From IMG/VR virus record IMGVR_UViG_3300037852_000102, positions 7,546-71,545 of that record: a stretch of 64,000 bases of DNA; one strand, given 5' to 3'. This stretch comes from a virus. The translations under genes and the position numbers were made by a program. A model generated the notes under the pieces. The model was not told the DNA's origin. It saw only the letters and a program-made list of their open reading frames with translations, and made no database searches. Below are positions 15,465 through 42,216 of this stretch, in pieces; the first letter of the stretch is position 1; every line of letters starts with the position of its first letter.

Positions 15465-15518
15465 GCGCGCCCCCTACGTCCCTCTAGATCAAATACCCTA
15501 CCCGGCAGCGAAACGCTA

Positions 15519-16310: not shown

Positions 16311-16313
16311 CGG

Positions 16314-20979: not shown

Positions 20980-20988
20980 GGGTTTTCC

Positions 20989-23414: not shown

Positions 23415-23423
23415 GCCCGGGGC

Positions 23424-23614
23424 TCACTTTGGTTTCGGAGCGATTAGTTTCCCGGTCTGCCAGTCTACCGTAAAGCCGTCCAGTTGCGCCGCCGCATAGA
23501 TAAACGCCTTGCGCTCCATGCTGTCCATCCGTTTCGCCTCACTCCACGGCTGGCCATACTTGTATGCGACGTGAACCGCCTCCTGAAAATCAGGCCCCTC
23601 GCAGATTTTTTTTT
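23424..23614 (-). CDS. Frameshift extension (gpGT-like) of the tail assembly chaperone
   Basis: A9 run at 23606-23614; the -2/+1 frame reads ICEGPDFQEAVHVAYKYGQPWSEAKRMDSMERKAF...KPK*. Confidence 0.7.
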
Positions 23615-24114: not shown

Positions 24115-24139
24115 GGCAATCCCCCGGCTAGAAAATCAG

Positions 24140-24631: not shown

Positions 24632-24643
24632 GATGGTCCCCTG

Positions 24644-26599: not shown

Positions 26600-26609
26600 C
26601 GTCGCCCCC

Positions 26610-27491
26610 TTAGCCCACCTGTAGCTGCACCTGCATCGTGGCCACCGGGGCCAAGACTGCAAACAGCGCGTCCGTCACCGTCACCGGGTAATCCATGCCT
26701 ACCATAGTGTCGTGCCGGTACACGTCCTCCAGAGTATCGTCCTCTAAATCATAATCCGACACATAAGACAATCGTGCCACCGTGCCGTCCGGCAGTGACG
26801 GCCCGAAATTCAACTCTGATTCGGCGACGGCGTCGGCGAGCGCGGCTGTCATTGCGTTGCGCTGTTCGACGGTCTGAGTCCAGATGATTATCTGCACCTG
26901 CTGATCGCGCCGCCCGATCTCGCGCACCTGCGACCCGCCGTTGCCCGCGTAAGACCCGACCGCCAGCGCCACCGTCGCCACGTTGGTGATCGTCACCACC
27001 GGCCCCGATGCCGTCGCGGTCAGCATCCCTGCCATGGACGAATCACCGTTGATTGCCGCGGCCAGTTTCGTGGCCATGGTCGTCGGCGTATCGGTGTGCA
27101 GCCCTGAAACCACCACCGCGCCCGTGTTCGCGCCCAGCATGATCGCCAGCGCCGACACCGCGTCGCCGTCCGTCATGGTCCCGCCGAGCGTGATCTGCGC
27201 CGTGTGACCGGGCGCGATGTGATCGGGCGCAATCGCCGTGGTCAGCGTCGCTGGGACCACGATCTGCGAAACCACGTAGGGATTCCACCGCGTCGCGTTC
27301 TTGCTGATCTTCCGGTCGTAAATCGAAACGATGGCGGGCTGGCCTGCCGGTGTCCCCTTGGCGATGCCCTGCAACACGCCAACCGGCGGGTAACCGATGC
27401 CCGACTTGTACGGGATCGACGGCGACAGCCCGTTGAGCGCGGTGTTCACCAACGCTTGAATCGAGGTCAGCACGTCGAACTGTGAAGCCAT
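26610..27491 (-). CDS. Neck/tail terminator protein with inserted domain
   Basis: Position before the sheath; IGYP, REIGRRDQQVQIIIW. Confidence 0.7.
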   Translation of the reverse strand: MASQFDVLTSIQALVNTALNGLSPSIPYKSGIGYPPVGVLQGIAKGTPAGQPAIVSIYDRKISKNATRWNPYVVSQIVVPATLTTAIAPDHIAPGHTAQITLGGTMTDGDAVSALAIMLGANTGAVVVSGLHTDTPTTMATKLAAAINGDSSMAGMLTATASGPVVTITNVATVALAVGSYAGNGGSQVREIGRRDQQVQIIIWTQTVEQRNAMTAALADAVAESELNFGPSLPDGTVARLSYVSDYDLEDDTLEDVYRHDTMVGMDYPVTVTDALFAVLAPVATMQVQLQVG

Positions 27492-28297
27492 CAGCCGTCG
27501 CTCCTGATCTTGCGGTCGCAGGTCAACTGGTAGCCGGAGACGCCGGTTTTCTGCTCATACGGCACCACCACGAGATAGCGCGCGCCGTTTTCGTCCACCA
27601 GCGCATCGCCCTCCGCTGGCATGTAGCCGGGCAGCGGCGGCACGTACACGAACCACTTTGCCTCTTTCAACATGCCGGGGACGCCGGGCTGGAAAATCCA
27701 GTCGTGTTGCCGGATCGCCGACATGAAGCCCGCCGGGACGAAACTGGCATTCCCCGCGCCCGCGGTGCCGAACGCATAGGTGCCGCCCGACAGCACCAGC
27801 GGCAGGTCGTTCACCAGCGTTTCTTTCCAATACGTCGCACCGTTCGCGCCGACCGATGCAGGTGATTCGGCTGGCCGGTAGATTTTCACTCGCCGGTCGA
27901 GACGCGCTCCAATCGCCTTATTCTCCGGGGGATGCCACGCCAAGCACATGGCGTTGAACTCAATGGTTCCGGGAATCGAAGTAGCTCCCGCTCCGTATGA
28001 GAATCCGGGGGCATAGGCGGGGTCGTTTTGCACAAACACGTCACCCAGTACGAATCGGTCCATGTTCGCCACGATGTCGTAAAAAAGTGCAACATTTTTG
28101 ATGCCCAGTTCCAGTTTGGTTTCCGCGAGCCTGCGCCTAAACATATAGAAATTGGGGACCGTCACGTTCCATGCGCCCGGGAAATCGCCCGATGATCCCG
28201 AGCCCAGCCGGTAGCCAACGAACGGTTGGCCGACGTGCTTGGCAGCTTGGCCGCGACCGTGGTCTATGTGGCGCTGGATTCTCGCATATTGAGTCAT
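27491..28297 (-). CDS. Head closure/neck protein
   Basis: Synteny; IDHGRGQAAKHVG, EGDALVDENGARY. Confidence 0.65.
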   Translation of the reverse strand: MTQYARIQRHIDHGRGQAAKHVGQPFVGYRLGSGSSGDFPGAWNVTVPNFYMFRRRLAETKLELGIKNVALFYDIVANMDRFVLGDVFVQNDPAYAPGFSYGAGATSIPGTIEFNAMCLAWHPPENKAIGARLDRRVKIYRPAESPASVGANGATYWKETLVNDLPLVLSGGTYAFGTAGAGNASFVPAGFMSAIRQHDWIFQPGVPGMLKEAKWFVYVPPLPGYMPAEGDALVDENGARYLVVVPYEQKTGVSGYQLTCDRKIRSDG

Positions 28298-29127
28298 GCG
28301 AATGCCACCCCGCCACTACGCTTGGGCTTTTGCGTCGCGTCTTTGTTGACCGGAATGCCGAGAAAATCGGAAAGAAGGGCGACCGTATTCTCGTAAAGAG
28401 AACGCCGCTGCCCGGCCTCGTTCGAACGCGGACTCCATTCGACCGTTTTGCTCGTGTCGAGATTGTCCGATGTCGTCCAGTACGCCGCTTCAAGCGCGTC
28501 CAGAATCGGGATGTAGCCCCACAGCACCGTATTGCCGCCGTCAAGCGAGGTCGGCCCGGGCGGCAGCAGCGAGCCGTCCGCCGTGATCGACGGGTAGAGC
28601 AGCCCGCTGCCGGACACCGCCACGGTGAAAGCCGCCGATCCGGCAGGACCGCGGAAACCCAGTTCCGGCACCGGCACCGCATTGGCCGCCCACGGTCCCG
28701 TCCCGTAGGGCGCGAGCGCGTAAATCTTGGCCGCCTGCAACACCGCGTTCTGATTGATCAGCGACGCCAGCGTGAGCGCCACGGTCAGCGCGGGCACATT
28801 GCCGGACGTTGGCGGCCCAACCGTCGCCGTGACCGTCTGCGGGCTAGCGATGCTCCCGCCGGAAAGCGTGATGCTGGCCGTGTCGCCCTGATTCGGCGTC
28901 GGCCCCACCAGCGACACCGCGCCGTAAGGAGCCCCCACAATGCGCGCTTCCTCGTCCGGGTTCATGTTGTTCATTCGGTATTCCAGCGCGCCATAGGCTT
29001 GGAAAAACCGATAGCCGACCGACCCCTGCGCGAACTGCGCGCCGCCGGGCGACACGACGTAGTTCCCGACCACGCCATACTTCAAATGTCGTCTGATTGC
29101 GGATTTCTGAGCAAGGGTGAGCGCCAT
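28294..29127 (-). CDS. Head-tail adaptor with inserted domain
   Basis: MALTLAQKSAIRRHL, YGALEYRMNNM, NLDTSKTVEW. Confidence 0.7.
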   Translation of the reverse strand: MALTLAQKSAIRRHLKYGVVGNYVVSPGGAQFAQGSVGYRFFQAYGALEYRMNNMNPDEEARIVGAPYGAVSLVGPTPNQGDTASITLSGGSIASPQTVTATVGPPTSGNVPALTVALTLASLINQNAVLQAAKIYALAPYGTGPWAANAVPVPELGFRGPAGSAAFTVAVSGSGLLYPSITADGSLLPPGPTSLDGGNTVLWGYIPILDALEAAYWTTSDNLDTSKTVEWSPRSNEAGQRRSLYENTVALLSDFLGIPVNKDATQKPKRSGGVAFA

Positions 29128-29131
29128 GGCG

Positions 29132-29767
29132 TCACCCCGCGCGCCGGGCCGGAATGATGCGGGGCAGTTTGAAAACCGTCTGGCAGGCCGGGCAGCACGC
29201 CATGCCCGGCGCATCGCCCACCGGAACCATCGGCGCGTTTTCCACACGCAACGCCATGATCAGCGGGAAGTCCGTCACCACGTCGTTCGGCTTGAAATGC
29301 GCCATGACGGGGCCGACCATGCAGGAGAACTTCTCAAGGAACACATGCGGGCCGGTCGCGGCGCGGTCGATCGCGGCCTGTGCAGCGCGCGCGGCGCTGG
29401 CGTGGTCAGGCAATGCTGCGATGAACGAATCCACCTGCTCGTCGGTCGGGTCCAGATCGTGCTCGCCGAGGCCCTGCGGAACGGGCGGCACGAAACCAGC
29501 GGCCAAATCTCCGTTGCCGTGTTCGGCGATCAGATGAAACGTGCTCGGCTCGGGCTGGGCGGCCAGCACCGTCTTGGCCCGTTCCACGTCGGCCAGCGTG
29601 AGCGCAGGCGCGGTTTCAAGTGTCGTGGCCTCATGAGCCGCCGCCACGGGTTCGGTCGCTCCCGCGTCCGCAGCCCACGGCGACGCCCCACCGCACGACG
29701 GACACGCCTTGCGGTTCCGATGCACGGGCTCCTGACACTTCGCGCAATCCCGGTAATTCTTGTTCAT
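29132..29767 (-). CDS. Zn-ribbon-containing hypothetical protein
   Basis: CAKC..CPSC N-terminus, CPAC C-terminus. Confidence 0.65.
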   Translation of the reverse strand: MNKNYRDCAKCQEPVHRNRKACPSCGGASPWAADAGATEPVAAAHEATTLETAPALTLADVERAKTVLAAQPEPSTFHLIAEHGNGDLAAGFVPPVPQGLGEHDLDPTDEQVDSFIAALPDHASAARAAQAAIDRAATGPHVFLEKFSCMVGPVMAHFKPNDVVTDFPLIMALRVENAPMVPVGDAPGMACCPACQTVFKLPRIIPARRAG

Positions 29768-31746
29768 ACGATGGGCATCCCCTGCGCAACCATCTGCGCC
29801 AGCACATCATAGCCGATGTCATAGGGCTGGCCATAGTAGAACGCGCTGATCCCGCCGTTCGACGGCGCGAACTCGAAATTGTTGGCCGCAAGGATCGGCC
29901 CGGTGCCGCCCGACAGCAGACCGCTCGCCCCGCCCGCGCCGCCGCTCATGTGCCCGTTCGACGGCGTAAAGGTCACGGTTTCCGTGCCGCCGCCGGTTTC
30001 GGTCACGGTCGCACTCACCACGGTGGTGTTGCCGATGACGCCCTGCTGGGTGATCGTAATCACGCCCGCAAGATTGCTGGCCGAAATGTCAGCATCCTGC
30101 AGGGTGGTGTCGCCGTTGATCAGCGCGACCAGCCCCGCGGCAATGGTCGTGGCGCTGTCGGCCCCGATCAGCGTGTAGGTCTTGGTCACCGGCAATCCGG
30201 GAACGCCGGAATTGGTGAACGTGAGCGCAACCGTATCGGTCGCCGCCGGAGCGGACGAAACGATGGTGGCAACTACACTGGCCAGCGTGTCGTTGATGAC
30301 GACGGTTTCGGTGTTCTTGCTCAACACCGTAATGGTTTCGGTCGGTGTGGTCGAAAGCGTGATGGTTTCCGAGCCCGGGCTGACAGACTGGGCAAACCGG
30401 ATTTGCCCGTTGTCCTGCTGGTAGCCGAACGTGATCACGTTGGTCGACGGCGACGCCGTGATGCCTGCCGCGATCAGCACCGGATCGGCATTGATCGTGT
30501 TCGACAGGTTGGCGGCAAGCGTGGTCGTGGTTTCGCCCAGCAGCGCCGTCCAGCTAACCGCGTGCGTTCCGCCCGGCAGGTACGCCGCATTGAACGTCAG
30601 ATTGAGCACGTCGCCAGCCGCCACGGCCCCGGTGATGGTCGCGGTCGGGGTGATGGTGTTCACCCATGCGGTATAGCTGATCGGCTCCGCAGCCGCCGGA
30701 ACCGCAATGGTGACGACGCCGGACGAATTGGTCCCGGTGATGGTGTTTGCGGCCAAGGTCGCGTCGGCATTGATCGCGGTGGCGAGGTTCGCGCCCATCG
30801 TGGTGGCGTTCTGGGTCGTGGTGAGAGCCGAGGTCACGAGCACGCCGCCCGGTTGGCCGGACCCGCCGCCCATGTGGCCGTTCGACGGAATGAACGTCAC
30901 CGTCTCCGAACCCGACACCGTGCGCGTCACCACCGTGGAATTGCCGATGGCACCCTGCTGCAACATCTGGATTTCGTTGCCGTTGGCAATCGCGGTGATG
31001 TCCGCGGCCTCAAGCGTCGTGTCCGCATTGATCAGCGCGGTGAGACCCGCCGCGACGCTCGCCGCGGTATCGCCCGCCAAAACGGTGTAGGTCTTGGTGA
31101 CCGGCAGGCCAGCCACGCCCGAGTTCGTGAACGTCAGGGCCACGGTGTCGGTCGGCGCGAACGTGCCGCCGAGGTCGGCCAGCACCGTCGCAGGCGTGAG
31201 CACGCTCAATGCCGGGCCGGTAAACAGCACTCCGAAAATGTCGCCGGTCAGCGCCGTGCCGCCCACGGTGATCTTGCTGGGCTCGCCGAGCGGGGCCTGC
31301 AGCGTGGTGAAATTGCCGACCGGGCCGCTTTGGTTGAACGTCAGCACCGAGCCGGCCACGTCCACCTCAACGTCGAACTGCGCCAGTGCCGCGTCGTCGT
31401 TGAACAGGTCGGCCAGCGATTCGGCAATCGAAGTCACCGTGTCGCCGCTCACCGTGGTGTAGGTGTGCGAGAACAGCCCGTTCGGGAAAACCGCGTTGAG
31501 CAATTCCAGCGTGATCTCGTCGCCGGTAGTCACATTGCCGCCAATCGTCGCGGTCGCGCTCGCATTGGCGCGCGGGTCCGCCACCAAGAAACCGGCGGGC
31601 GACGAATGGTTGACCGTGGGCGGCATGACGTTCGCCGAGCCATCGCCCAGCACGCGGTTCCGGTCGAAGTTCGGAATCAGCGTCGGATTGCGCGGATCGA
31701 ATTTCCCGGGGGTGCCCTGCGGCGGCAGGAGGGTGCGGACGACCAT
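29764..31746 (-). CDS. Thr-rich repeat virion (decoration-like) protein
   Basis: Five copies of a ~75-aa GD..LTF..TYT..GDT..IA..L..IN domain. Confidence 0.75.
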   Translation of the reverse strand: MVVRTLLPPQGTPGKFDPRNPTLIPNFDRNRVLGDGSANVMPPTVNHSSPAGFLVADPRANASATATIGGNVTTGDEITLELLNAVFPNGLFSHTYTTVSGDTVTSIAESLADLFNDDAALAQFDVEVDVAGSVLTFNQSGPVGNFTTLQAPLGEPSKITVGGTALTGDIFGVLFTGPALSVLTPATVLADLGGTFAPTDTVALTFTNSGVAGLPVTKTYTVLAGDTAASVAAGLTALINADTTLEAADITAIANGNEIQMLQQGAIGNSTVVTRTVSGSETVTFIPSNGHMGGGSGQPGGVLVTSALTTTQNATTMGANLATAINADATLAANTITGTNSSGVVTIAVPAAAEPISYTAWVNTITPTATITGAVAAGDVLNLTFNAAYLPGGTHAVSWTALLGETTTTLAANLSNTINADPVLIAAGITASPSTNVITFGYQQDNGQIRFAQSVSPGSETITLSTTPTETITVLSKNTETVVINDTLASVVATIVSSAPAATDTVALTFTNSGVPGLPVTKTYTLIGADSATTIAAGLVALINGDTTLQDADISASNLAGVITITQQGVIGNTTVVSATVTETGGGTETVTFTPSNGHMSGGAGGASGLLSGGTGPILAANNFEFAPSNGGISAFYYGQPYDIGYDVLAQMVAQGMPIV

Positions 31747-31750
31747 CGGA

Positions 31751-31954
31751 TTACCTCTTTGCCTTCATCAATTTGCCGGGGCCAAGCGGCGTGACCTTAT
31801 CACCTAGCTTGGCGCGATTCGTGTCGCGTCGCATGGCCTGCTCACCCGCCGCATACTTGTCCCAGTCCGGCGTAAATTGCTCGTCGAACTTGGAAAAAAC
31901 GGCGGCTTCCGTTTTCGGGCCGCCGTTGATTCGGGTGATCACCTTGCGGGCCAT
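31751..31954 (-). CDS. Small basic protein
   Basis: Operon packing; late-gene codon style. Confidence 0.6.
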   Translation of the reverse strand: MARKVITRINGGPKTEAAVFSKFDEQFTPDWDKYAAGEQAMRRDTNRAKLGDKVTPLGPGKLMKAKR

Positions 31955-31994
31955 GTCGATTTTCTCAACCGTCTAGTAGGGCGCAAAAATCGAG

Positions 31995-32201
31995 TTACTT
32001 GACCCGGTTCATCGGGTCCGCGTAGTGCGCCGCACTCCGCTCGTGATCGGCACCCGGCGGCTTCGCAACGCTGCCCGTTCCCGGCACCGTCATCGATTCG
32101 CCCTTGGTCACACCACTCACGTTCACCGATTCCGCACCGCGTCCGCCTGACTTCTGACCGCGCAACGAGGCCGACATATCCTTGGAAACTGGTTTAACCA
32201 T
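31995..32201 (-). CDS. Small basic Gly-rich protein
   Basis: GGAGAGGACAGGA upstream. Confidence 0.6.
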   Translation of the reverse strand: MVKPVSKDMSASLRGQKSGGRGAESVNVSGVTKGESMTVPGTGSVAKPPGADHERSAAHYADPMNRVK

Positions 32202-32223
32202 GGTCCTGTCCTCTCCGATTTCA

Positions 32224-32252
32224 AAACGGGGGCCGAGTCGCCCCGGCCCCCG
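32224..32252 (-). terminator. Terminator after capsid/HNH
   Basis: CGGGGGCCGGG-gcga-CTCGGCCCCCG-TTTT. Confidence 0.7.
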
Positions 32253-32314
32253 CCGTCACCGCCACGATAGCCGCCGGGTAGGACTATCGCAACAGACCCC
32301 AAGCGCCCCCGGAA

Positions 32315-33073
32315 CTAATTCAGCATCGCCCGGTCGCGAATCTCTTGCGCGCGATCCGGCGCGTATTCCTCAACCGTTCTGTCCTGCTTGCTCGAATTGC
32401 ACGGCAGACAAGCTGGAACGATGTTGCCCTTTTGATTCTTGCCGCCGCGTGACAGTGGCGTCAGATGCTCAAAGGTCATTTTCGTTTCGACGCCGCAATA
32501 AGCGCAGGAATGGTCGAACTCTTTCAGCAGCGCCAGCCAATCGGCGCGCGTGAATTTCCCCTCCAGCGACAGCACTTCGGAAATCGTGCCGTCCGCTCGG
32601 TACGCCTCTCGGCGCAGCATCGCCTTGCGCAGACGCCTGCGATCACGTTCAACCACGCGAACGTCTGGACGCTGACGGTAGACCTTTCGCTTGGCTTTGA
32701 ACTCTGGCGTCTTGCGCATGGCGTTCGTCTTGGCCTTCCGGGCTTCGCGATTGTCTCGCCAACTTTTTAGCGAGGTTACTCTGGTTCGATCATTGTGGCA
32801 GGAAATACAATATGACCCTGTTCCTGTCGGACTCCTTACGTTCTTGCAAAATTCAGCGTGCGATTTTGTTTCCTTGCAGAGAGCGCATTTCCTTGTCTCA
32901 GTTGGGTTGATGGTTGGCGGGTTCGCCTTCGCTCTCGCCAACTTCTCTTTTGCCATGGTCCCGTTGCACGCCTTGCAGTACACATCGAATCCATCACCGT
33001 ACTTGCGTTTCGACGGGTAGAAACCACCAACCTTCGGTTTCGTTTCCCCGCAACGCGGACACCGCTTTTGCAT
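32315..33073 (-). CDS. Free-standing HNH endonuclease
   Basis: Two KxCxxC..CKAC modules, CAYCG..EHLTPLSRGG..NIVPACLPCNSSK; GGAGG SD. Confidence 0.9.
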   Translation of the reverse strand: MQKRCPRCGETKPKVGGFYPSKRKYGDGFDVYCKACNGTMAKEKLARAKANPPTINPTETRKCALCKETKSHAEFCKNVRSPTGTGSYCISCHNDRTRVTSLKSWRDNREARKAKTNAMRKTPEFKAKRKVYRQRPDVRVVERDRRRLRKAMLRREAYRADGTISEVLSLEGKFTRADWLALLKEFDHSCAYCGVETKMTFEHLTPLSRGGKNQKGNIVPACLPCNSSKQDRTVEEYAPDRAQEIRDRAMLN

Positions 33074-33105
33074 GCTCGCCTCCATCTGCGAACACACTAT
33101 ACGGA

Positions 33106-34476
33106 TTATCCCGCATGCTCAATACAGAGGGCTCTTTTGTAAAGGGAGTTCGATGCGGTTGGGATAATGCTTGTGGTCGAAGTCTGGTCGCTCGGGACGG
33201 CCATGTCGCCGATCCACGTCCACGACTGGCTCGCGTTCTGGCCGAGCCGGTCGAGCGGCGGGCGGATGATCTGGGCCACGTTGTTGATCAGAAACACGTC
33301 GTTGATCGGGCTCATGCCCTCGCGGGCGATCCACGAATCGATGCCCTCGAAATTGCCCTGAATGAGACATTCGGCACCGAGGATGATCGGACGCCGCACG
33401 CGGACACCGATGGCCGACGTTCCCGTGGCACCCGTCGCGTTGGCCTGCTGGACGTAGGCTTCCGTCGTCGGGATGTAGGTGACGCCCAACAGCCGGATGA
33501 TGTCGCCGTCGCGGTACTCGCGCGAATCGGAGCGGCCCGCGAACAGGATTTTGAAGTCCTGATCGGCCCAAAGCTGGCGCATCGACGTGTTGTCGAGAAT
33601 GCAGTGGTAGGAGCCATCGGGCATCGGCGGCACGCCGTTGTCGCGCAGGTACGCCACGCCGTCCTCAACGAGGCTCATGGTCATCACGTCGCTGCCGGTC
33701 AGTTGCGCCGTGGTCTGTTTCGAGAACGGACGCAGGATTTTCGGAGCGTTGAGCGCCAGCAGCGCATCGCCGTTGACCGGGGTAGTGGCGGCGGTGAACG
33801 TGATCACGCCCGAGATACCATCGGGGGCGCTTGAGTGGTTGGTGCCATCGGCAACCGCCGCGGTCACGGTGAGCGTCTGCGCCACACCACCGGCGGCGAT
33901 CTGGACCTCGAACACGGTCAGCGGGTTGGTGGACGAAATCGGCGTCACCACGCCGTTGACCAGCACCGTGGTGAAACCGCGGATGTCATCGACGTGGGCG
34001 GTGGTGGTCGATCCCGCGCCGAGGTCGGTGCGGACGCGGCTGTTGCCGCCGAGGTAAGCCGAAAACAGCTTGAACCGGGCGATGCGCTCAAGCGACTGCG
34101 CCGCCTGCACGCCGGAGTTCCGGCTGTTCGCGAACATCTGATTCGCGATGCCCGCGAGTTCCTGCATCAGGTTGGTGTCGACCGTATCGCCGTATTCCTG
34201 CATGTTGAACGAATACTGCTCAACCGAGAACGACGACGGCGTAAGCCCGTTGTCCAAGCCTGTGTTGGTGCTCGGGTTCATGGGCGTGGTGACCGGCGCT
34301 TTGCGGCCCTTGCGGGTCCGGGTCAGCGTCTCGCCGATTCGGGCGGGCACCGTTTCCTCAAGAGCGGCGCGGCGATAGGCGAGGACCGAGTCCAGCCCTT
34401 CCTCAAATTCCCGCTCCAAGAAACCCAGTTGCAACGTCGGAACAAGCGCGGCGGGAAAATTGGTAAAGCCAGCCAT
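33106..34476 (-). CDS. Major capsid protein (N4-gp56/DUF4043-like)
   Basis: LQLGFLEREF, IGETLTRTRKG, EQYSFNMQEYG, RPPLDRL; size and synteny. Confidence 0.88.
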   Translation of the reverse strand: MAGFTNFPAALVPTLQLGFLEREFEEGLDSVLAYRRAALEETVPARIGETLTRTRKGRKAPVTTPMNPSTNTGLDNGLTPSSFSVEQYSFNMQEYGDTVDTNLMQELAGIANQMFANSRNSGVQAAQSLERIARFKLFSAYLGGNSRVRTDLGAGSTTTAHVDDIRGFTTVLVNGVVTPISSTNPLTVFEVQIAAGGVAQTLTVTAAVADGTNHSSAPDGISGVITFTAATTPVNGDALLALNAPKILRPFSKQTTAQLTGSDVMTMSLVEDGVAYLRDNGVPPMPDGSYHCILDNTSMRQLWADQDFKILFAGRSDSREYRDGDIIRLLGVTYIPTTEAYVQQANATGATGTSAIGVRVRRPIILGAECLIQGNFEGIDSWIAREGMSPINDVFLINNVAQIIRPPLDRLGQNASQSWTWIGDMAVPSDQTSTTSIIPTASNSLYKRALCIEHAG

Positions 34477-34490
34477 GGCAGAGGCCCCCT

Positions 34491-34700
34491 GAAAACGGTC
34501 AAGCGTTGGATTGCATAGGGATTGCAGTCTGGGCGGTCGGCCTGCCGACGCTGCCTTGGGCGCTTGCCCGAACGATGTTTACGACAATCGTTGGTGTCGG
34601 TTTCCACGTTGCGATCTTGCGTCGCTCAAGGAAACTGCGGAGCCTGCTCGTACACGTCCACCGTTTGATCGGCTTGGGGGAGGGCCTGCCCTCTCCCACG
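34491..34700 (-). ncRNA. Candidate structured 5' leader of the capsid gene
   Basis: Closing stem AAACGGT/ACCGTTT, several hairpins, three CAGG tetraloops. Confidence 0.55.
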
Positions 34701-34716
34701 GATCATGTTGGATTTG

Positions 34717-34745
34717 TCAATACGACGAAATTTTGAAACGCGCAA
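34717..34745 (-). promoter_or_regulatory. Putative sigma70 promoter for the capsid transcript
   Basis: TTGCGC-17-TATTGA. Confidence 0.5.
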
Positions 34746-34773
34746 GGGGTTGGCGCAACGGGTAGTGCAAACG

Positions 34774-34986
34774 TCAGCGCCTGCCGCTAGATCGAGCAGT
34801 CGGAATGCCTTGTCTACAATATGCCGATAAAATACTTTGAGATGCTCTAATAGCGTCAGCGGATTTCTCGCAAGCCTCAGAGGGAAGCGGTCCGATCATT
34901 TGCGTACCCATGGACTCCCAGCTTTCTATGGTTGTAGACGGCTGGAGATTGGCGACCATCATGACTATCAGAAAAAATTCTGGCAT
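34774..34986 (-). CDS. Small Cys-pair exported/membrane protein
   Basis: Hydrophobic N-terminus, GPL..EAC...AYC; similar to 53457-53636. Confidence 0.6.
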   Translation of the reverse strand: MPEFFLIVMMVANLQPSTTIESWESMGTQMIGPLPSEACEKSADAIRASQSILSAYCRQGIPTARSSGRR

Positions 34987-35010
34987 GTTTCCCTCAATGC
35001 TGGCCGCGCC

Positions 35011-35178
35011 TTACCGGGGGCCGTGTAGCTCTCTCTCGTCTGCCGGTAAACGCTGCATTGCTTCTCGCCCAACCCTAAACCCTGTGATAAATCCTTCGGT
35101 GACAAACCCAACCACGACGCCAATCAACACTGGAAAGCCGCCAGCATAGCATTTGAGAATGGTCCAGAGCGGTTTCAC
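35011..35178 (-). CDS. Small membrane protein (55 aa)
   Basis: GGAGGGG SD, GTG start, FPVLIGVVVGFV. Confidence 0.5.
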   Translation of the reverse strand: MKPLWTILKCYAGGFPVLIGVVVGFVTEGFITGFRVGREAMQRLPADERELHGPR

Positions 35179-35194
35179 TTTTCCCCTCCAAAAA

Positions 35195-35731
35195 CTACTT
35201 GTCCAGAATCTTGTCGATGTCCGCCAGCGTGGTGCCCGGAATCTCGTTGGTCTCCAGCTTGAGGTCGTCGCGCTTGATGTGGATCAGCGTGACGTGGCAG
35301 GGCAGCGTGCCGAGCGCGACTAGTTGTTTGCTGTATTCCGCAAAGTCCGGGTTTTGGTGTTCTTTCTTGTCATCGCCCGTGACCGTCTGCGGAATCTCAG
35401 GTGCGCCCTTGGCGATCTCCGAAAAGATTTTTTGCCGCGCGTTTTCGATCTCGGTGGGGATGTTCGCGAGCCGCGCCTGATTCTCCGCGATGTTGCCGCG
35501 CAGGGTCGCGTTCTTGAAAATGTAGGACTGCACGTTGCCCTTGTCGGTCGTGTAGCCGTCCAGCCCGCGCAAGCCCCGCAGGATCGTCACGCAGTCGTTG
35601 AACGTAAATTCGGCCTTGGGGATCACGGTGGTGCGCGGCGGCTCCGGTGTCGGCGCTGCCGGAGCCTGCTGGCCGAACGCAACGGTTGCCATGGCGAACA
35701 TGGCAGCGAAAATCATCAACAGCTTTTTCAT
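35195..35731 (-). CDS. Secreted hypothetical protein
   Basis: Sec signal MKKLLMIFAAMFAMATVAFG; GC3-rich. Confidence 0.75.
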   Translation of the reverse strand: MKKLLMIFAAMFAMATVAFGQQAPAAPTPEPPRTTVIPKAEFTFNDCVTILRGLRGLDGYTTDKGNVQSYIFKNATLRGNIAENQARLANIPTEIENARQKIFSEIAKGAPEIPQTVTGDDKKEHQNPDFAEYSKQLVALGTLPCHVTLIHIKRDDLKLETNEIPGTTLADIDKILDK

Positions 35732-35784
35732 GGGGTGTGCGCCTTTCCCGGGCGGTTCGTGGTGGTGACTGTCGTTTGGAAACT

Positions 35785-36171
35785 TTAGCCGTCCAAAACT
35801 TTTTTCGCCTCATTAAGGGCGGTTTGAAGATCGATGCAAGTCCCGTCTGGACGTTTGCCATGAATGAACCCGTAAAGCACCCGCGCCATCTTCAAGCAGC
35901 GGCTTTCGTAGTTCATCATGATCTCTCGGGTACGATCATATTCGTGCTTCCATCCCTCGGCCGCCTCCTTTGCGTTGGCGGGAACCCCGCCTCTAGGGAA
36001 CTGCAAGCGGCAAACCGGCGGATCGACAAGCGCTTCCAAGTCGGCGACCTGCGCAGTTAATCGTTTGATTTCGTCGCGATCTTCCCGCGCCTCCTTCAGG
36101 ATTGGACCGACGATCTCGTTATAGTCCGCATGATCTTCTATTTGTTTGAAAACGCTGTCATGCCGTGGCAT
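35785..36171 (-). CDS. Hypothetical coiled-coil protein
   Basis: GGAG SD before MPRHDSV. Confidence 0.6.
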   Translation of the reverse strand: MPRHDSVFKQIEDHADYNEIVGPILKEAREDRDEIKRLTAQVADLEALVDPPVCRLQFPRGGVPANAKEAAEGWKHEYDRTREIMMNYESRCLKMARVLYGFIHGKRPDGTCIDLQTALNEAKKVLDG

Positions 36172-36189
36172 CGTCGGGTTTCTCCAAAA

Positions 36190-36290
36190 GGGCGATCCAG
36201 TAAACCGCCTCGGCACCAACCACGCGCGTGGCCTAGCTCCGAAGTTACCTGATGGCGGCGCAAGGTCGGATAACTCACGCTAGATCGCCC
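36190..36290 (-). ncRNA. Candidate 101-nt cloverleaf-like small RNA
   Basis: 11-bp closing stem GGGCGATCTAG/CTGGATCGCCC then TTTT; starts at the predicted +1. Confidence 0.55.
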
Positions 36291-36296
36291 AACAGT

Positions 36297-36325
36297 ATTA
36301 TGCGGAATTACCCGCACGATGTCAA
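36297..36325 (-). promoter_or_regulatory. Strong sigma70 promoter with a 16-bp operator in its spacer
   Basis: TTGACA-17-CATAAT; TGCGGAATTACCCGCA at 36301-36316. Confidence 0.75.
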
Positions 36326-37017
36326 CGGTCCTTGAGGGCGCGTATCGCTTGATCTTGTGCAGCCCGGTATTCGGCAGGCGGTAGCGTCCGAGCGGTTGCT
36401 GGCGATGGGGGCGGCGATCCCGGCGTGACCGGAGGTGCGGGGTTGCCCGTCCTCGGGGCCGGAGGCGGCCCGCCTGCGGTGAAATAGTTCGGCTTCTTTG
36501 CCTTGAACGCGGCGATGGCCTCGGCGACGCCAGTCACATTGCCCTTTGCGTCCACAACTATTGTGGTGCGGTCGATCATCGGAAGCAAATCCAGATCGGT
36601 CAATCCAGCGGTGGCGGCCTCTGCCATCAATCTGGCGTCCGCGATCTGCTGATTGCGTTCGGAGATGGTGGCGGCTGCGGTGGCTTCCGCGGTGGCCACC
36701 CGCTGATCAGCTTCCTGCCTGATTCGGTCGGCCTCGGCGCGGGCGGCGGCCTCGGCTTCCCGCGCCGTGCGGGCGTCGATCCGGTACGCCGCAGCCTCGG
36801 CGCGCAACGCTGCCGGGTCATCACTGCTGGCCCGCTGCGGAGCGGGAGGCGGCGGTGGCGCGTGGTGTACCGGCGGCGGGGCAGGCGGCGGCGCTGGGGG
36901 CGCTGGCGGAGGCGGGGCGGGGTTCGGCGGGTTCGGCTCGTCAAAGTGCATCAGCGGGCCGCCCAGCGCACGCGGCAGCAGCAGGCTGGAAATCGTCGTT
37001 TCCCCGGTCTTTGTCAT
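36322..37017 (-). CDS. Capsid scaffolding protein
   Basis: Pro-rich ends, LRAEAAAYR, coiled coil, AFKAKKPNYF. Confidence 0.8.
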   Translation of the reverse strand: MTKTGETTISSLLLPRALGGPLMHFDEPNPPNPAPPPPAPPAPPPAPPPVHHAPPPPPAPQRASSDDPAALRAEAAAYRIDARTAREAEAAARAEADRIRQEADQRVATAEATAAATISERNQQIADARLMAEAATAGLTDLDLLPMIDRTTIVVDAKGNVTGVAEAIAAFKAKKPNYFTAGGPPPAPRTGNPAPPVTPGSPPPSPATARTLPPAEYRAAQDQAIRALKDR

Positions 37018-37038
37018 GGTTCCCTCGTGGTTTGCGAA

Positions 37039-37749
37039 TCAGATTGATGCGTTGAGCGCAACGGTGACGTTCGCGCCCGTGCCGGTCAGCGTTTGCAGCC
37101 GGGCCTTGATGTAGGTCGGCAACGTCGTCAGTTCGGTGAACCCGAACGCGGCGAGGCTGGACCCGATCTTGGTCCCGTTGGTCAGGGTCGCGACCGCTGC
37201 CGTCTCGCTGGCCCCGGCGGATAGCGTGGTGGTCACGCCGGTGAAATTCGCAACACCCTGCGGAGTGCCGCCAGCCGTATCGCCGCCCGGCCAAATGCTC
37301 GGGAAATTGATCGTGACGATCGCGCCCGCCTGTTGGGCGGAAATCCCGCAGCCCTGCAGGTTCACGTCCGCATTGATCGCCGCGGCCAAAGCCACGGCCA
37401 GCGTCGTGGTGGTGTCGCTGCTGCCCGCCGTAACCACAACGGCCTCGGTGCCAGCGCCCGGCAGGTTAGGATTGGTGAACGTCGCGGTGATCGTGTCCCC
37501 GCTCGTAACCGTCGATCCGATGGTGATGGTGTAGCCGTTGACCGGGTTCGGGTTGTTCGTGCCGTAGATGTCCACGCTCAACGTCGATTGCGAGCCGAAC
37601 AGTTCCAGCGAAATATCCTTGGCCCCGCCGATCTGAATCCACGGCCCCTCGTAAACCGGCACCGCCTGCGCCGCGGGTAGCAGCAGCGCGTTGAGGCCGT
37701 AAGCGCCGACGAACCGGGGCGAGAGAAAATCAATCAGCGGTGTCTGCAT
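37039..37749 (-). CDS. Virion protein (jelly-roll-like) with inserted repeat domain
   Basis: VDIYGTNN...YIKARL flanking the same domain found in 29764-31746. Confidence 0.7.
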   Translation of the reverse strand: MQTPLIDFLSPRFVGAYGLNALLLPAAQAVPVYEGPWIQIGGAKDISLELFGSQSTLSVDIYGTNNPNPVNGYTITIGSTVTSGDTITATFTNPNLPGAGTEAVVVTAGSSDTTTTLAVALAAAINADVNLQGCGISAQQAGAIVTINFPSIWPGGDTAGGTPQGVANFTGVTTTLSAGASETAAVATLTNGTKIGSSLAAFGFTELTTLPTYIKARLQTLTGTGANVTVALNASI

Positions 37750-37963
37750 GTCCGTCCCCTTCGATCTCGGCTAGCGCCTCACCCTGCCCGACGAACGCAC
37801 CCAATACCACCAACCACGTCAACACGCCATCGCACGGCGCAACAATCGGGAACATCGTTTTCATGCACTCCAGTTCACCGATGCTCTCGCCCGCCTTCAC
37901 GCTGGCCCCCGTCTCCGCGTAGAATTGGCTCACGCTGCCGACCGTCTCCGAACTGATTCGCAC
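37730..37963 (-). CDS. Stand-alone biotinyl/lipoyl-domain protein
   Basis: GASVKAGESIGELECMKTMFPIVAPCDGVL...GEALAEIE matches the BCCP E-x-M-K fold pattern. Confidence 0.8.
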   Translation of the reverse strand: MRISSETVGSVSQFYAETGASVKAGESIGELECMKTMFPIVAPCDGVLTWLVVLGAFVGQGEALAEIEGDGHADTAD

Positions 37964-38676
37964 TATAAAAACGCCTCCTGCTTCGGAGCGGGCTTCGGCG
38001 CTTCAATGAACAAATCCGGCCGCGCCAGCGCGTCGGCGATGCGGCGGCAGGCGATCTCGAAATACTTCGGCTCGATCTCGATGCCGATAAACTTGCGGCC
38101 GAGCTTGACGGCGGCAACGCCGGTGGTGCCGGAGCCCATAAAGGGGTCAAGGATGGTTCGGCATTCTTCAGGAAGATGCTCGATGCACCACTTCATAACA
38201 TTTGCTGATTTTTGGGTCGGATGAAATCTTTCCTCACCACCTTTTCGCTGAAAACCGTTCCAGCACCACCGGATCAGGCGAACGGCTTGGTCAAGGTTGG
38301 TCCACGCCAGTTCGCAATCTGCAAAGTCCGTTTCACCGTTGCATTTATCCCAAATGAGCCAGCAGCGCGCCGGCGGAAGCTCATAATAATTGCCGCCAAA
38401 AATAATCTGGTATGAAGACATTTCACACATAGCGGCGAGCAAGCCGACATCAATCGGTTTCTGATCCCAGTTGTATTCGCCATAATCGCGCGGCGATGCA
38501 TTGCGCCAGCGCGGGCTGCTTGTTCCTCTACTCGCTGTTCGCCTTGAACTTTCACCAATCCCATACGGCGGATCAGTCACCACGGCGTCGACCTTGCCGA
38601 GATCAGGCAATATCTCCCGGCAATCGCCGCAATAAAGCGTGACGCCTTCGGCGAGATGTTCGACGCGCGGGTTCAT
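37963..38676 (-). CDS. DNA N6-A/N4-C methyltransferase (beta class)
   Basis: VTDPPYG, HPTQK, ILDPFMGSGTTG, GIEIE. Confidence 0.93.
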   Translation of the reverse strand: MNPRVEHLAEGVTLYCGDCREILPDLGKVDAVVTDPPYGIGESSRRTASRGTSSPRWRNASPRDYGEYNWDQKPIDVGLLAAMCEMSSYQIIFGGNYYELPPARCWLIWDKCNGETDFADCELAWTNLDQAVRLIRWCWNGFQRKGGEERFHPTQKSANVMKWCIEHLPEECRTILDPFMGSGTTGVAAVKLGRKFIGIEIEPKYFEIACRRIADALARPDLFIEAPKPAPKQEAFL

Positions 38677-38698
38677 ATGATCCTCGAATCCTGCTCCA

Positions 38699-38878
38699 TC
38701 ATGGCAGCCGAGCGATGTCATCGACGATCACAAGTTTCCCGGCGTTGGCCAATCGTTCGACCTCCGGCCACAGGGCTCCGGGCGGTTTCGTTAGTGTATC
38801 TTCGGCGAGTGCTCGGCTCAAATAGCCGCGACTGCTGATATCAGCCAAAACCGATTCCTCAGTTATTTCTACCCACAT
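38699..38878 (-). CDS. Small hypothetical protein (59 aa)
   Basis: TGATG coupling; MWVEITEESVLADI. Confidence 0.5.
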   Translation of the reverse strand: MWVEITEESVLADISSRGYLSRALAEDTLTKPPGALWPEVERLANAGKLVIVDDIARLP

Positions 38879-39204
38879 CAGACGATTCTCGAATCCGCTT
38901 CCCGCCAGTTCAAAACGATGGTGGCACCGCGATCCCGCCCGCCCATTTCCAGCATCAGCCCGTCCTCAGCTCCCGCCATCAGGACGAAACTCCCAGTGAA
39001 GCATGAAGGCTGGAACCATAGCGGGCGGCCCGCCCCCGTCAAGACGCGCGCGCGAACCCATGCACCTGCGGAAAGGATTTGCACGCTGTAGAGTTCGCAA
39101 CTCCGGCGCGCGAACCGCGTCACCCCGAGCGTGTCCACGGTCGCCGACCGCATCAGCGAGCCCGGCGCGCAAGGGGCGTATATCTCGCGGTCAGGCTGCA
39201 ACAT
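38878..39204 (-). CDS. Small beta-rich protein, paralogue of 39191-39658
   Basis: GRPLWFQPSCFTGSFVLMAGAEDGL. Confidence 0.6.
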   Translation of the reverse strand: MLQPDREIYAPCAPGSLMRSATVDTLGVTRFARRSCELYSVQILSAGAWVRARVLTGAGRPLWFQPSCFTGSFVLMAGAEDGLMLEMGGRDRGATIVLNWREADSRIV

Positions 39205-39658
39205 TGGCGCGACGGAAGGGCTGCCAGACGAACGTCGCGACCGCAGCGACCGAATTGTGGCCGCCGCCTGCGTGGATCGTCAGCCCGTTGTGAAACCCCG
39301 CATTCAGCATCCAGCTTCCCATGACAGCAGGCAATGCCGTGTAGAACGCGCGCCCGTTGCGCTTGCCCCACTTTTCCAGCACCTCGGGCGGCGAATCGAA
39401 CGCCGGTTCGTCCACAGGCACGTCCTCGGGATTGGTGAAAAACCCGTTTTCATCCGGGATGCCGTCGATGATTCGAATGCCGCCCGACCCGCCGTGCGTG
39501 CAGGCGCAGGTGATGATCGTGCCGGGGCCGCGTTCGAGCACGAACAGGCCCTTGTCGTTCAACAACCATGCTTTGGCCCCCATCACGGGCTGCGGGACTT
39601 CAACGTGTGTCACGGCAGGCTGCGCCTCGCCCGACAACGAATGGCCAACCGCTCTCAT
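39191..39658 (-). CDS. Small beta-rich protein downstream of portal
   Basis: GRAFYTALPAVMGSWMLNAGFHNGL; ATGA coupling. Confidence 0.65.
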   Translation of the reverse strand: MRAVGHSLSGEAQPAVTHVEVPQPVMGAKAWLLNDKGLFVLERGPGTIITCACTHGGSGGIRIIDGIPDENGFFTNPEDVPVDEPAFDSPPEVLEKWGKRNGRAFYTALPAVMGSWMLNAGFHNGLTIHAGGGHNSVAAVATFVWQPFRRANVAA

Positions 39659-41436
39659 TCCAATGCTCCCGCCGTGCTCGCGCTAATCAGCCCCGTCCCG
39701 CCGCCCACCTGATCCTCGTCACCCTCGGGCGTGCCGGGCGGGTTGTTCACGTCAATCGAGGTCGGTGACGGAATGATCTCAGTCGGTTCCTCGGGGGAGG
39801 TCGGGCTGTCGTCCACATCCTCGTCCTCGGCATCCGTCGCCTCAAGGTCCAGCATTCCGATGTCCATATTGATCAGCAGATACGCGCGCGCCTCGTCGAT
39901 GGTCAGGAATTGCTCGCTGTCCTCGCCACCGCCCTTTGCTGCGGTTTTCGGCGGCTTGGGGCGCGTCGGTGGCACCTCGGGCGTCCCGGGTGTCGCTGGG
40001 CCGCCGCCAGCCCCAGCTGGCTTGCCGGGCTGCGCAGGCGTGCCGGGAGCCGTCGCCTTAAGCGGGTCGATGGCGATCTGCAACGCCTGCATGAGAGCAA
40101 ACAATTCATCCGGCGTCGGCTGGAACAGCCGCGGCCACTGCAATTGAATCCCACCCACGGCGTTGTCACCCATCAGCTTCGCCGCCATCGCAATCTTTTT
40201 GATCAGCGGCAACGCGCCATCCTCGCCGTACTGGCTCCGCAGGTCCATCACGAGGTCGTTGGATTCCTCGTCGAGATATTCCATCGCGCGGCCCGACAGC
40301 GGGGCTTTCATCTTGTCGGGGTCTTTGCGAGACGCGGCGATCTGTTCCAACGCGAAATTGCGCAGGCTTTCGATCAGCTTCAAGCCGGCGTCGGTGCCGG
40401 TGCCGGACATTTCCAGCAACTCAGCCCCGCCCTCCCCGATGGTCATGCCATCGTCCTCTTTGTACCCGGCGCGCACCTGCAGCACGTTCGCAGGCCCGCG
40501 CACCATGTCGTCGTTCATCAACTCGCCCTTGATGACCAATTGCGGCGCGGCGTTGTAGCGCACCCCGCGCCCGATCTGCGACAGCGTGTAATCCAGTTCG
40601 ATGCTGTTGGGGATCGCGTCGGCCCATGTGCAGTCGCCGTCAACGCCGCTGCCGCCCGCGAGATTGACGAACCACTGGCCGGGCACGAAATTCAGCCCGT
40701 GCGTTATCGTGCCGTCCGCTGTTCCGACCTTTGGGGCTGGCTTCAATTCGGTCGGCGGCGTCTTGTTGTCGGTGAACCCGTCGACCGGATTCCACTTGTC
40801 CTGCGGGATCGGCAGATAGGTGATTTCCTCGGATGTCGTGTAGTCGCGCACGAACCAGTAATTGGCGGCGTTGTCCAGCTTGATGCCGAACATATCATCG
40901 GGCAGCCCGAACGCGACGAGCCCCGCGCCTGCCGCCGTGTATGACACCCGCAATTGCGCGAGTTCGCCGAAATCGTCAAACGACGGCTTGCAGTATTTCG
41001 CCCGCCACAGCGTCAGCGCCAGCCGCGCGTCGTCCTTGGTCCCCTCCACCCGGAACGTCACCGCAATCGACCCGACGGAGCCCAGCAGCACGGCCTCGGC
41101 CATCTTCTGCCAGAACTTCGCGCGCCGCAGCAGCCGGTTCAACGGCTTAAGCTGGGCCTTGTCCTTGAGCCGCAGTTTCGGACGGTGCCGTCCGGCGAAC
41201 AGTTTCCGCGCGCTCCACCGCGCCACCATGCGCGGGAGGCGGAACTGCGCCGAGGGCCGCCGGTCCTCAAGCGGAATCATCTTCTGCTGCTGGTCCAGTT
41301 CGTCGTAAAACGCCGAGGGCAAGTGGTCGTAAAACGTGCCGTCCAGCAGCCGGTCGAACTGATCCAGCCGCTTGTAGCGCGGCCAGCGTTTGGCCCATTC
41401 GGGAAGCTGGATTTTGTCTGCAGTCTTGCGGAACAT
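39655..41436 (-). CDS. Portal protein
   Basis: Follows terL; LLGSVGSIA, IELDYTLSQIGRGVRY, SGRAMEYL. Confidence 0.85.
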   Translation of the reverse strand: MFRKTADKIQLPEWAKRWPRYKRLDQFDRLLDGTFYDHLPSAFYDELDQQQKMIPLEDRRPSAQFRLPRMVARWSARKLFAGRHRPKLRLKDKAQLKPLNRLLRRAKFWQKMAEAVLLGSVGSIAVTFRVEGTKDDARLALTLWRAKYCKPSFDDFGELAQLRVSYTAAGAGLVAFGLPDDMFGIKLDNAANYWFVRDYTTSEEITYLPIPQDKWNPVDGFTDNKTPPTELKPAPKVGTADGTITHGLNFVPGQWFVNLAGGSGVDGDCTWADAIPNSIELDYTLSQIGRGVRYNAAPQLVIKGELMNDDMVRGPANVLQVRAGYKEDDGMTIGEGGAELLEMSGTGTDAGLKLIESLRNFALEQIAASRKDPDKMKAPLSGRAMEYLDEESNDLVMDLRSQYGEDGALPLIKKIAMAAKLMGDNAVGGIQLQWPRLFQPTPDELFALMQALQIAIDPLKATAPGTPAQPGKPAGAGGGPATPGTPEVPPTRPKPPKTAAKGGGEDSEQFLTIDEARAYLLINMDIGMLDLEATDAEDEDVDDSPTSPEEPTEIIPSPTSIDVNNPPGTPEGDEDQVGGGTGLISASTAGALE

Positions 41437-41766: not shown

Positions 41767-42216
41767 TTATGCGGCGGCGGGCGGTTCGGCGTCAAGCACC
41801 ACCCGCCCTCTCGCCTTAACCTTTTCGATAGCCCACGCTGGCGGCGAATTGTCCGCTCGGCTGCTGTTACACGGTTCACAAGCAACGACGATGTTGTCCC
41901 ACCGCTGCGTTCCGCCACGACTTCGCGGTATCAATTCGTCCATGGTTGCATCTTCAAGCCGCAGCACCGTGGGGCACCAGAAGCACTTGCCGCCTTGATG
42001 CTCGTGGAGAATGCGCTTTCGCTGTCGGTATTTGGAGCTAGTAAGTCGCCCCGGGCCGGTCGCGACGGCGGCGGGTCGCGCATGAAGTAGTCGCCAATCG
42101 TGCAGCGCATCGTACTGTGGGACGCTGTGCGCGGACAGGTGCATGTCCTTGTGCCCGAACGACGCGCGCGCCACGACGTTGTTCTGGCCCATGGGCGAGC
42201 CTTTCGACTTGTGCAT
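41767..42216 (-). CDS. HNH endonuclease
   Basis: QGGKCFWC, ATMDELIPRSRGG, NIVVACEPCN (first His replaced by Glu). Confidence 0.8.
   Translation of the reverse strand: MHKSKGSPMGQNNVVARASFGHKDMHLSAHSVPQYDALHDWRLLHARPAAVATGPGRLTSSKYRQRKRILHEHQGGKCFWCPTVLRLEDATMDELIPRSRGGTQRWDNIVVACEPCNSSRADNSPPAWAIEKVKARGRVVLDAEPPAAA

Follow-up and report, generated by a model that had tools for sequence, protein, structure and literature searches.

Does the segment directly upstream of the major capsid protein gene in the phage studied here encode a structured RNA, and what might such an RNA do? The window, as we call the whole stretch of DNA analyzed, comprises 64,000 nucleotides (nt) and is part of a 71.5-kb IMG/VR virus record (IMGVR_UViG_3300037852_000102, positions 7,546 to 71,545); the segment in question, at 34477-34745 on the minus strand, forms the leader of the capsid gene. 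An earlier note, made from the sequence alone, had taken it for an undescribed structured RNA with three hairpins capped by CAGG loops. This RNA proved to be conserved and covarying in relatives and to have no match in Rfam 15, and the leader is, with high probability, a functional, conserved structured RNA.

On the minus strand, the CAGG-loop hairpins of that note are all present at the coordinates it gives, as are its remaining inverted repeats, the AACGAT/ATCGTT, GGGC/GCCC and AAACGGT/ACCGTTT repeats of the leader among them. The hairpins, and the helices (P1 to P6) of the conserved 5' domain to which two of them belong, are as follows.

34576-34730, minus strand: conserved 5' domain of about 150 nt, matched by covariance models R2 and R3 (see below) and recurring in the related loci L004, L005, L007 (=L046=L103), L048 and L049
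34708-34704/34656-34652 and 34702-34700/34659-34657, minus strand: P1, enclosing P2 and P3 in a three-way junction
34693-34680, minus strand: P2, the hairpin GAGGG-CAGG-CCCTC, an inverted repeat inside P1 with arms extendable to 11 nt
34673-34670/34663-34660, minus strand: P3, inside P1
34649-34640, minus strand: P4, the small hairpin GAG-CAGG-CTC
34635-34630/34605-34600, minus strand: P5a, outer helix of arm P5, GTTTCC/GGAAAC, enclosing GCGA/TCGC and capped by C-GCAA-G
34625-34622/34614-34611, minus strand: P5b, inner helix of P5, with a GCAA-type cap
34599-34595/34586-34582, minus strand: P6, hairpin CGACA/TGTCG
34549-34536, minus strand: the third CAGG hairpin, GTCGG-CAGG-CCGAC, an inverted repeat
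34775-34789, minus strand: a fourth hairpin from the hairpin scans, TAGCG-GCAGG-CGCTG, which lies upstream of the putative promoter and overlaps the stop codon of an open reading frame (ORF) of 70 amino acids

The fourth hairpin has no counterpart in L004, so its place in the element is uncertain. Folded by itself, the leader has a minimum free energy of -88.2 kcal/mol, compared with a mean of -88.8 for dinucleotide shuffles (z 0.12), and 102 of 200 shuffles were at least as stable. The fold thus equals shuffled sequence in energy, and the case for function rests on comparison with relatives.

To this end, loci were collected by their capsid protein from IMG/VR (42), metagenomes (57) and GTDB genomes (30). 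Using blastn, leader DNA similarity was detected in only one of 131 loci, L004, whose capsid protein is 84% identical to that of the window; the two leaders are 76% identical, with indels of 1, 1, 1, 1, 2, 6 and 13 nt. A covariance model built from this pair (R1) yielded weaker matches directly upstream of the capsid gene and on the same strand in L005 (E 3e-11) and in L007=L046=L103 (E 2.5e-5), both sharing only the 5' half of the leader, and a model of four sequences with a hand-drawn structure (R2) added L048 and L049 (E about 1e-5). All six distinct members, that is, the window and five other phage sequences, carry the domain directly upstream of the capsid gene and on its strand. Model R3 disclosed no further member over 132 loci, with L006 as a marginal match (E 3.5); by eye, a hairpin resembling P4 (GGGG-CAGGUU-CCCC) can be seen in L006, with CGG-UAAGA-CCG after it. 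In 151 genomes from the family to which genome G001 belongs, R3 returned only G001 and a 46-nt partial match (E 0.0018). Exact-pattern scans of IMG/VR with two conserved blocks found only L004, and a degenerate three-block scan found L004, the contig of L005 and one new contig, L149, which we rejected as a chance match lying antisense inside a 453-amino-acid ORF and unmatched by R3. The six distinct sequences of the family stem from soil metagenomes and one metagenome-assembled genome (MAG) of the Acetobacteraceae. The GTDB capsid loci are mostly Acetobacteraceae MAGs, which suggests the host family; the motif occurs in a small clade of soil phages whose hosts are probably Acetobacteraceae.

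The helices of the 5' domain are supported by compensatory change. In the RNAalifold consensus of the window and L004, 11 of 63 pairs carry compensatory changes, as when GUUUCC/GGAAAC in the window becomes GCUACG/CGUAGC in L004. An alignment of all six sequences, itself fitted to the covariance model, has standard pairs in 86.2% of cells, compared with 36.8-47.0% when the partners are slid by 1-3 columns, and 23 of its 35 pairs are changed on both sides (5-9 when slid); none of 500 shuffles reached the observed values. In an unfitted MAFFT alignment of four sequences, 84.1% of cells are paired (36-44.5% when slid) and 17 of 35 pairs are changed on both sides (2-7 when slid). In arm P5, an internal loop with the conserved sequence AAYGU separates P5a from P5b, and the GNRA-like loop that caps P5b ends in AAGA. 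Two structural proposals of the earlier note gave way in this comparison: the AAACGGT/ACCGTTT stem said to enclose most of the leader is not conserved in L004, its CGGT half pairing locally with GCCG in P3, which covaries in relatives, and the ACGAT/ATCGT hairpin competes with P6, the pairing that relatives favor. Conservation and covariation in relatives, the absence of which the note had named as grounds for discarding its idea, were both found, and compensatory changes together with a fixed position by the capsid gene are the generic marks of a conserved structured cis-regulatory RNA.

The CAGG loop itself recurs across the clade. In a set of 10 deduplicated leaders (300 nt upstream of capsid genes whose products are at least 62.5% identical), CAGG ranks first of the 256 possible 4-mers at the start of hairpin loops. 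Considering stems of at least 4 bp, there are 12 CAGG hairpins, 4 for the next motif and 0.36 on average in shuffles; with Watson-Crick stems of at least 3 bp, the values are 17, 5 and 0.59, and in neither case did any of 1000 shuffles reach the observed count. Excluding the window and L004, 8 and 13 CAGG hairpins remain in eight leaders, against 0.30 and 0.46 expected, and the counts for 75 outgroup leaders are 2 and 6 (stems of at least 4 and at least 3 bp, respectively). The density of CAGG hairpins is 4.05 per kb in the leaders, compared with 0.173 per kb in the remainder of these loci and of the window, counting both strands. At least one CAGG hairpin is found in 8 of the 10 leaders, at differing structural positions: on P2 it is carried by the window, L004 and L007, on P4 by the window, L005, L048 and L049, and on P6 by L048; the loop also sits on non-homologous 3' hairpins. 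The stems bearing it are unrelated, with three such hairpins each in L047 and L049, two each in L006, L007 and L048, and one in L005. The base following CAGG in the 17 hairpins is T in nine, C in six and A in two, the orientation relative to the capsid gene is constant, and other NAGG loops are not enriched in these leaders. As far as can be judged from sequence comparison, a fixed asymmetric loop in multiple sense-oriented copies on variable, compensating stems is what marks a hairpin that a specific partner recognizes in its RNA form.

The same loop was also seen outside these leaders. In L113, from an Acetobacteraceae MAG and with 42% capsid identity, GGTCGG-CAGG-CCGACC lies at 2960-2980, 34 nt before the capsid start; its core is the same as that of the window hairpin at 34549-34536, and the two leaders are otherwise unrelated. 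An identical GCGTC-CAGGC-GGCGC hairpin lies inside the capsid coding sequence (+369 to +381) of L006, L047, L049 and L051, probably through mere codon conservation. A host repeat element was considered and rejected: the 14-nt hairpin GTCGGCAGGCCGAC has 56 matches in 201 host-family genomes, compared with about 43, by our tally, for a reversed control, which is chance level.

The 3' part of the leader (P7, P8 and P9) is common only to the window and L004, and it holds the Shine-Dalgarno (SD) sequence.

34569-34558, minus strand: P7, GGGC-AAGC-GCCC; stem kept and loop changed in L004
34555-34532, minus strand: P8, GGC..GTCGG-CAGG-CCGAC..GCC, within a 25-nt block identical in L004
34479-34531, minus strand: P9, predicted SD-pairing helix, CAGA (34531-34528)/TCTG (34482-34479) and TCCCT (34521-34517)/AGGGG (34490-34486)
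34490-34485, minus strand: SD sequence AGGGGG, covered by the predicted P9

P9 is part of the RNAalifold consensus of the window and L004, and its pairs are kept through one-sided U-G/C-G changes. We hypothesize from this predicted fold that P9 may sequester the SD in the subgroup formed by these two phages. SD occlusion as a family-wide feature was rejected on account of mixed pairing probabilities (0.33-0.80). We also discarded pairing between leader and coding sequence: a 13-nt complementarity between 34612-34600 (in P5) and 34443-34431 (capsid codons 12-16) is not conserved in any relative.

The putative promoter and the RNA-library contigs that overlap the leader are located as follows.

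34745-34717, minus strand: putative promoter, TTGCGC (34745-34740), 17-nt spacer, TATTGA (34722-34717)
34291-34573, strand unreadable: RNA-library contig X3, identical to the window
34516-34694, strand unreadable: RNA-library contig X5, from a soil RNA library
34424-34613, strand unreadable: RNA-library contig X6, from a soil RNA library

The promoter that had been proposed ahead of the leader exists as a sequence and is weak: it agrees with the sigma-70 consensus in only 6 of 12 positions, and a promoter scan did not list it. At the equivalent place, L005 has TTGACA-18-TATAGA (10/12) and L004, L006 and L047 score 9/12 each, with TTGACA-like -35 boxes, and a TATTGA/TATAGA/ATAGGA/TAAGGA block aligns in five of the six members. 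In L007 and L048 the domain starts at the scaffold stop codon without a promoter of its own, so that the element is intercistronic. Three soil metatranscriptome runs, from three studies, each yielded one contig matching a 3.4-kb query; these runs were found using this very stretch, and the contigs show neither transcript ends nor expression level. They cover 34291-34694 only, which comprises the leader plus the opening 186 nt of the capsid gene, and there is no other RNA contig within 33000-36400, an absence that by itself proves nothing. Their variant bases lie where no pairing is predicted: TT is inserted at the P2/P3 junction, and two bases are substituted in the P9 interior loop. These contigs are a weak hint that a stable leader-containing RNA exists.

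Searches for known RNA families and for coding sequence in the leader returned little. With Rfam 15 (4227 models), window positions 33500-36000 gave two chance-level matches at E up to 10, both inside the capsid gene; the whole window gave none at gathering score, seven relatives gave none at E up to 1, and 35900-38900 gave one weak SAM-SAH match (E 3.9). ARAGORN found no tRNA or tmRNA gene in the whole window. The idea that the leader is an intron splitting the capsid gene was likewise dismissed, as the capsid protein aligns to relatives from residue 4 and no intron model matches. Translation as the 66-amino-acid ORF at 34499-34699 (GC content at third codon positions, GC3, of 0.69), the other ground on which the earlier note would have withdrawn its proposal, is not conserved: the L004 leader has indels that are not multiples of 3 and stops in all three frames, and the ORF is therefore not a gene.

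How the leader acts is a matter of graded likelihood. The reading we tentatively favor, at a little short of an even chance, is that approximately 34712-34477 (minus strand) is a structured 5' leader of the capsid mRNA in which the CAGG hairpins are operators for a trans-acting factor that tunes translation or stability. The hairpins would be recognition sites for this factor, most likely an RNA-binding protein encoded by phage or host, and the factor would set the translation or stability of the capsid mRNA, for example by favoring either the helix that sequesters the SD or an accessible ribosome-binding site. We infer the action in cis at the RNA level, the existence of the binding factor and the control of the SD. 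The operator array put forward in the earlier note fits the variable stems and the fixed CAGG loop in 8 of 10 leaders; no binding protein was identified. The suggestion in that note that such an array sets capsid:scaffold stoichiometry is a conjecture, and its alternative, a packaging-associated RNA, gained no support. The MS2 and PP7 coat-protein operators, in which a capsid-related protein reads loop bases on a stem of free sequence and represses translation, resemble the leader in their fixed loop on a variable stem, protein recognition being for the window a proposal; they differ in being single hairpins spanning the start codon in RNA phages, as opposed to one to three hairpins 50-230 nt upstream in a double-stranded DNA phage. 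CsrA/RsmA arrays consist of GGA-loop hairpins bound by a translational regulator, and they share with the leader several variable-stem hairpins with a fixed G-rich loop, one site being near the SD. An array of CsrA/RsmA sites was nevertheless rejected, given that the GGA core occurs in only 2 of the 17 CAGG loops and that CsrA sites do not include the invariant C-A preceding GG.

Several observations weigh against the operator reading. The single-sequence fold of the leader has no excess stability over shuffles (z 0.12), the consensus energies of the sense and antisense strands are close, so that energy does not decide the strand of the structure, G-U cells exceed A-C cells by only 14 to 8, and six distinct sequences are too few for a formal covariation test. 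The 62.5% identity threshold defining the clade was chosen after seeing the data, two of its leaders (L008 and L051) carry no CAGG hairpin, and P4 has the loop UAGAA in L004 and UAGAU in L007, so that CAGG is not obligatory there. SD sequestration rests on two sequences, and the SD pairing probability is mixed across eight leaders folded singly. The RNA contigs carry no strand information and could be DNA carry-over. The GNRA-like cap and the conserved unpaired bases would also fit a compact tertiary fold without a protein partner, and the clade-conserved head-module proteins have no match to an RNA-binding family, nor does their presence track the hairpins. The ORFs between scaffold gene and leader (o144, o178 and o70) have no homologue in any locus. 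A narrower version of the operator reading, in which free scaffold, capsid or another head-module protein binds YAGR/CAGG loops on the GNRA-stabilized fold and would thereby switch the SD helix as an assembly feedback, we think rather unlikely. To our knowledge, such control is known for the coat proteins of single-stranded RNA phages and has not been described for a capsid gene of tailed double-stranded DNA phages, and the listings from literature searches on translational autoregulation by scaffold or coat proteins held nothing relevant.

The explanations that dispense with an operator have to account for the same observations. The leader could be a passive device for high expression, shielding the 5' region from ribonucleases and Rho and presenting the ribosome-binding site, with the CAGG loops as stable caps or standby sites, as in the T7 gene 10 leader or the ompA 5' hairpin; this is unlikely, if still a serious candidate. 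In T7, the scaffold gene, a dedicated promoter, a structured leader and the capsid gene follow one another and capsid expression is very high. The window has the same layout; compared by description only, the T7 leader is short and lacks a multi-helix domain or a repeated loop motif. The capsid is the most abundant late product, several members have a sigma-70-like promoter directly before the domain, L006 and L047 have a CAGG hairpin within about 20 nt of the predicted transcript start, and the RNA contigs pile on the leader rather than its flanks, as a stable fragment would. Yet a stabilizer has no need of a fixed loop, and CAGG is at least three times as frequent as any other loop 4-mer; likeness to the SD alone fails to explain its C, since other NAGG loops are unenriched, and the conserved unpaired AAYGU and AAGA of P5 are needless for protection. 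We regard as improbable that the domain acts, alone or with a factor, on RNA polymerase as a processive antitermination RNA for reading the late operon of about 20 kb after the capsid gene, on the model of HK022 put, lambda nut/boxB or the Bacillus EAR element. The domain does stand just after a promoter-like site in four to five members and the coding-type ORFs from 34476 to about 13000 are almost all on the minus strand, and the leader shares with put and nut the place of a promoter-proximal structured RNA ahead of a long late or early operon. It differs from them in size and architecture and in lacking an Rfam match and a boxA: a boxA-like word, in four variants, was found in none of the 10 clade leaders, for which reason a lambda-type nut site beside the hairpins was rejected. 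Also opposed to antitermination are terminator-like sites that, in 14000-33200, are fewer than in shuffles (8 compared with a mean of 16), leaving no evident barrier, and the domains of L007 and L048 at the scaffold stop codon; moreover, put RNAs are not known to carry several fixed-loop hairpins.

A riboswitch-like sensor or a self-cleaving ribozyme processing the scaffold-capsid transcript would suit the three-way junction, the GNRA-like capped arm with its bulged A, the unpaired AAYGU and AAGA conserved in five to seven members, and the intercistronic location in L007 and L048, where processing would uncouple the levels of scaffold and capsid mRNA. This is quite improbable: no riboswitch or ribozyme of Rfam 15 matches, the 3' half, the expected place of an expression platform, is unconserved beyond L004, the RNA contigs have no common end, and no terminator-like site follows the domain. 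Indeed, none was found on the minus strand within 33000-37200, which also led us to reject an attenuator or intrinsic terminator. Finally, it is scarcely credible that the segment consists of chance hairpins in GC-rich non-coding DNA, of the small ORF at 34499-34699 or of a DNA-level site with cruciforms for a DNA-binding protein. The unremarkable energy of the single fold, the existence of that ORF with its GC3 and the similar sense and antisense consensus energies are what such an account can draw on. It is opposed by covariation and loop enrichment far above controls, by the frame-breaking indels and stops of L004, which exclude a conserved ORF, by the constant orientation of CAGG relative to the capsid gene, and by the exact 14-nt hairpin not being a host-family repeat; compensating arms around a fixed asymmetric center are the opposite of a duplex DNA operator.

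The leader belongs to a head module that, according to protein family searches, runs sequentially on the minus strand from the large terminase to a second HNH endonuclease.

43064-44668, minus strand: large terminase, first in the module
41767-42216, minus strand: first HNH endonuclease, between terminase and portal
39655-41436, minus strand: portal
37963-38721, minus strand: DNA methyltransferase (PF01555, phrog_67), inserted in the module
37730-37963, minus strand: 77-amino-acid biotin/lipoyl-attachment-like protein (PF00364, E 8e-11)
37039-37749, minus strand: 236-amino-acid protein, between the portal region and the scaffold gene
36322-37017, minus strand: scaffold protein (PF06810, which we take to be the family formerly called GP20)
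33106-34476, minus strand: major capsid protein gene, 456 amino acids, ATG at 34476-34474
32315-33097, minus strand: second HNH endonuclease, directly after the capsid gene

The capsid protein matches phrog_1357, 'major head protein' (E 2e-27), and over residues 4-454 shares 48% identity with the protein annotated as major capsid protein in Ralstonia phage Hyacinthe; its gene has a GC3 of 0.8-0.95. In the GC3 plot, the capsid gene and a 178-amino-acid ORF (35195-35731) stand out as strongly coding, and no phase gives a coding signal from 35190 to 34477; between 34476 and about 13000, nearly all ORFs with coding-type GC3 are on the minus strand. The 236-amino-acid protein is 36-42% identical to counterparts in L005, L006, L007, L047 and L054, has no sequence match in Pfam, PHROG or PDB, and by its position could be the prohead protease. 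The methyltransferase has no counterpart in any related locus, and the biotin/lipoyl-like protein is kept in L005-L008. The two HNH genes that interrupt the module are probably homing endonucleases; L004 carries a 46%-identical HNH endonuclease at the same site after the capsid gene.

In Ralstonia and Komagataeibacter phages with a related capsid, the gene just upstream of the capsid gene lies about 90 nt away; it is the scaffold gene by position and is annotated 'hypothetical' or 'minor structural protein'. In the window, about 1.85 kb of extra DNA separates the two genes. Between scaffold gene and leader lies a cassette (34774-36325, minus strand) that is missing from all relatives and looks like a moron insertion. 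It begins with the region's best sigma-70-like promoter (TTGACA-17-CATAAT, 11/12, 36325-36297) and contains ORFs of 144, 178 (35195-35731, GC3 0.83, signal-peptide-like N-terminus), 55 (35011-35178, hydrophobic) and 70 amino acids (34774-34986).

Among the closest described counterparts are GP20-a (RF02991) and GP20-b (RF03003), candidate cis-regulatory structured RNAs that are placed upstream of phage scaffold (GP20) genes (PMC10690425). As described there, they resemble the present leader in preceding a head-module gene, in having been found by comparative genomics and in lacking an established mechanism, and differ in that they precede the scaffold gene and the window motif precedes the capsid gene (PMC10690425). 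No Rfam model, the GP20 motifs included, matches the leader, the region upstream of the scaffold gene, or the relatives. Among 8,495 IMG/VR motifs, the same report mentions five upstream of the major capsid protein domain PHA00201, which share with the leader their IMG/VR source, their type and their position by the capsid gene, a comparison by description only (PMC10690425). The motif thus matches no Rfam family, and its novelty is to be read with those five capsid-upstream candidates, compared by text alone, in mind. Literature searches, judged by their listings, gave no description of CAGG-loop hairpins in capsid leaders.

The capsid genes of tailed phages are, as far as we know, among the most strongly expressed in nature, and their post-transcriptional control is almost unstudied. 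The narrow distribution of the present family, with six distinct sequences, limits its reach and its statistics. Nevertheless, a covariation-supported domain of about 150 nt in which a fixed-loop hairpin recurs is a compact system for reporter, probing and pull-down work. Should the loops not be operators, the domain would still add a well-supported family to the sparse catalogue of leaders of phage structural genes; if they do act as operators, they would indicate a regulator of head assembly that binds RNA, and would provide a compact hairpin-protein pair that may serve as a tool.

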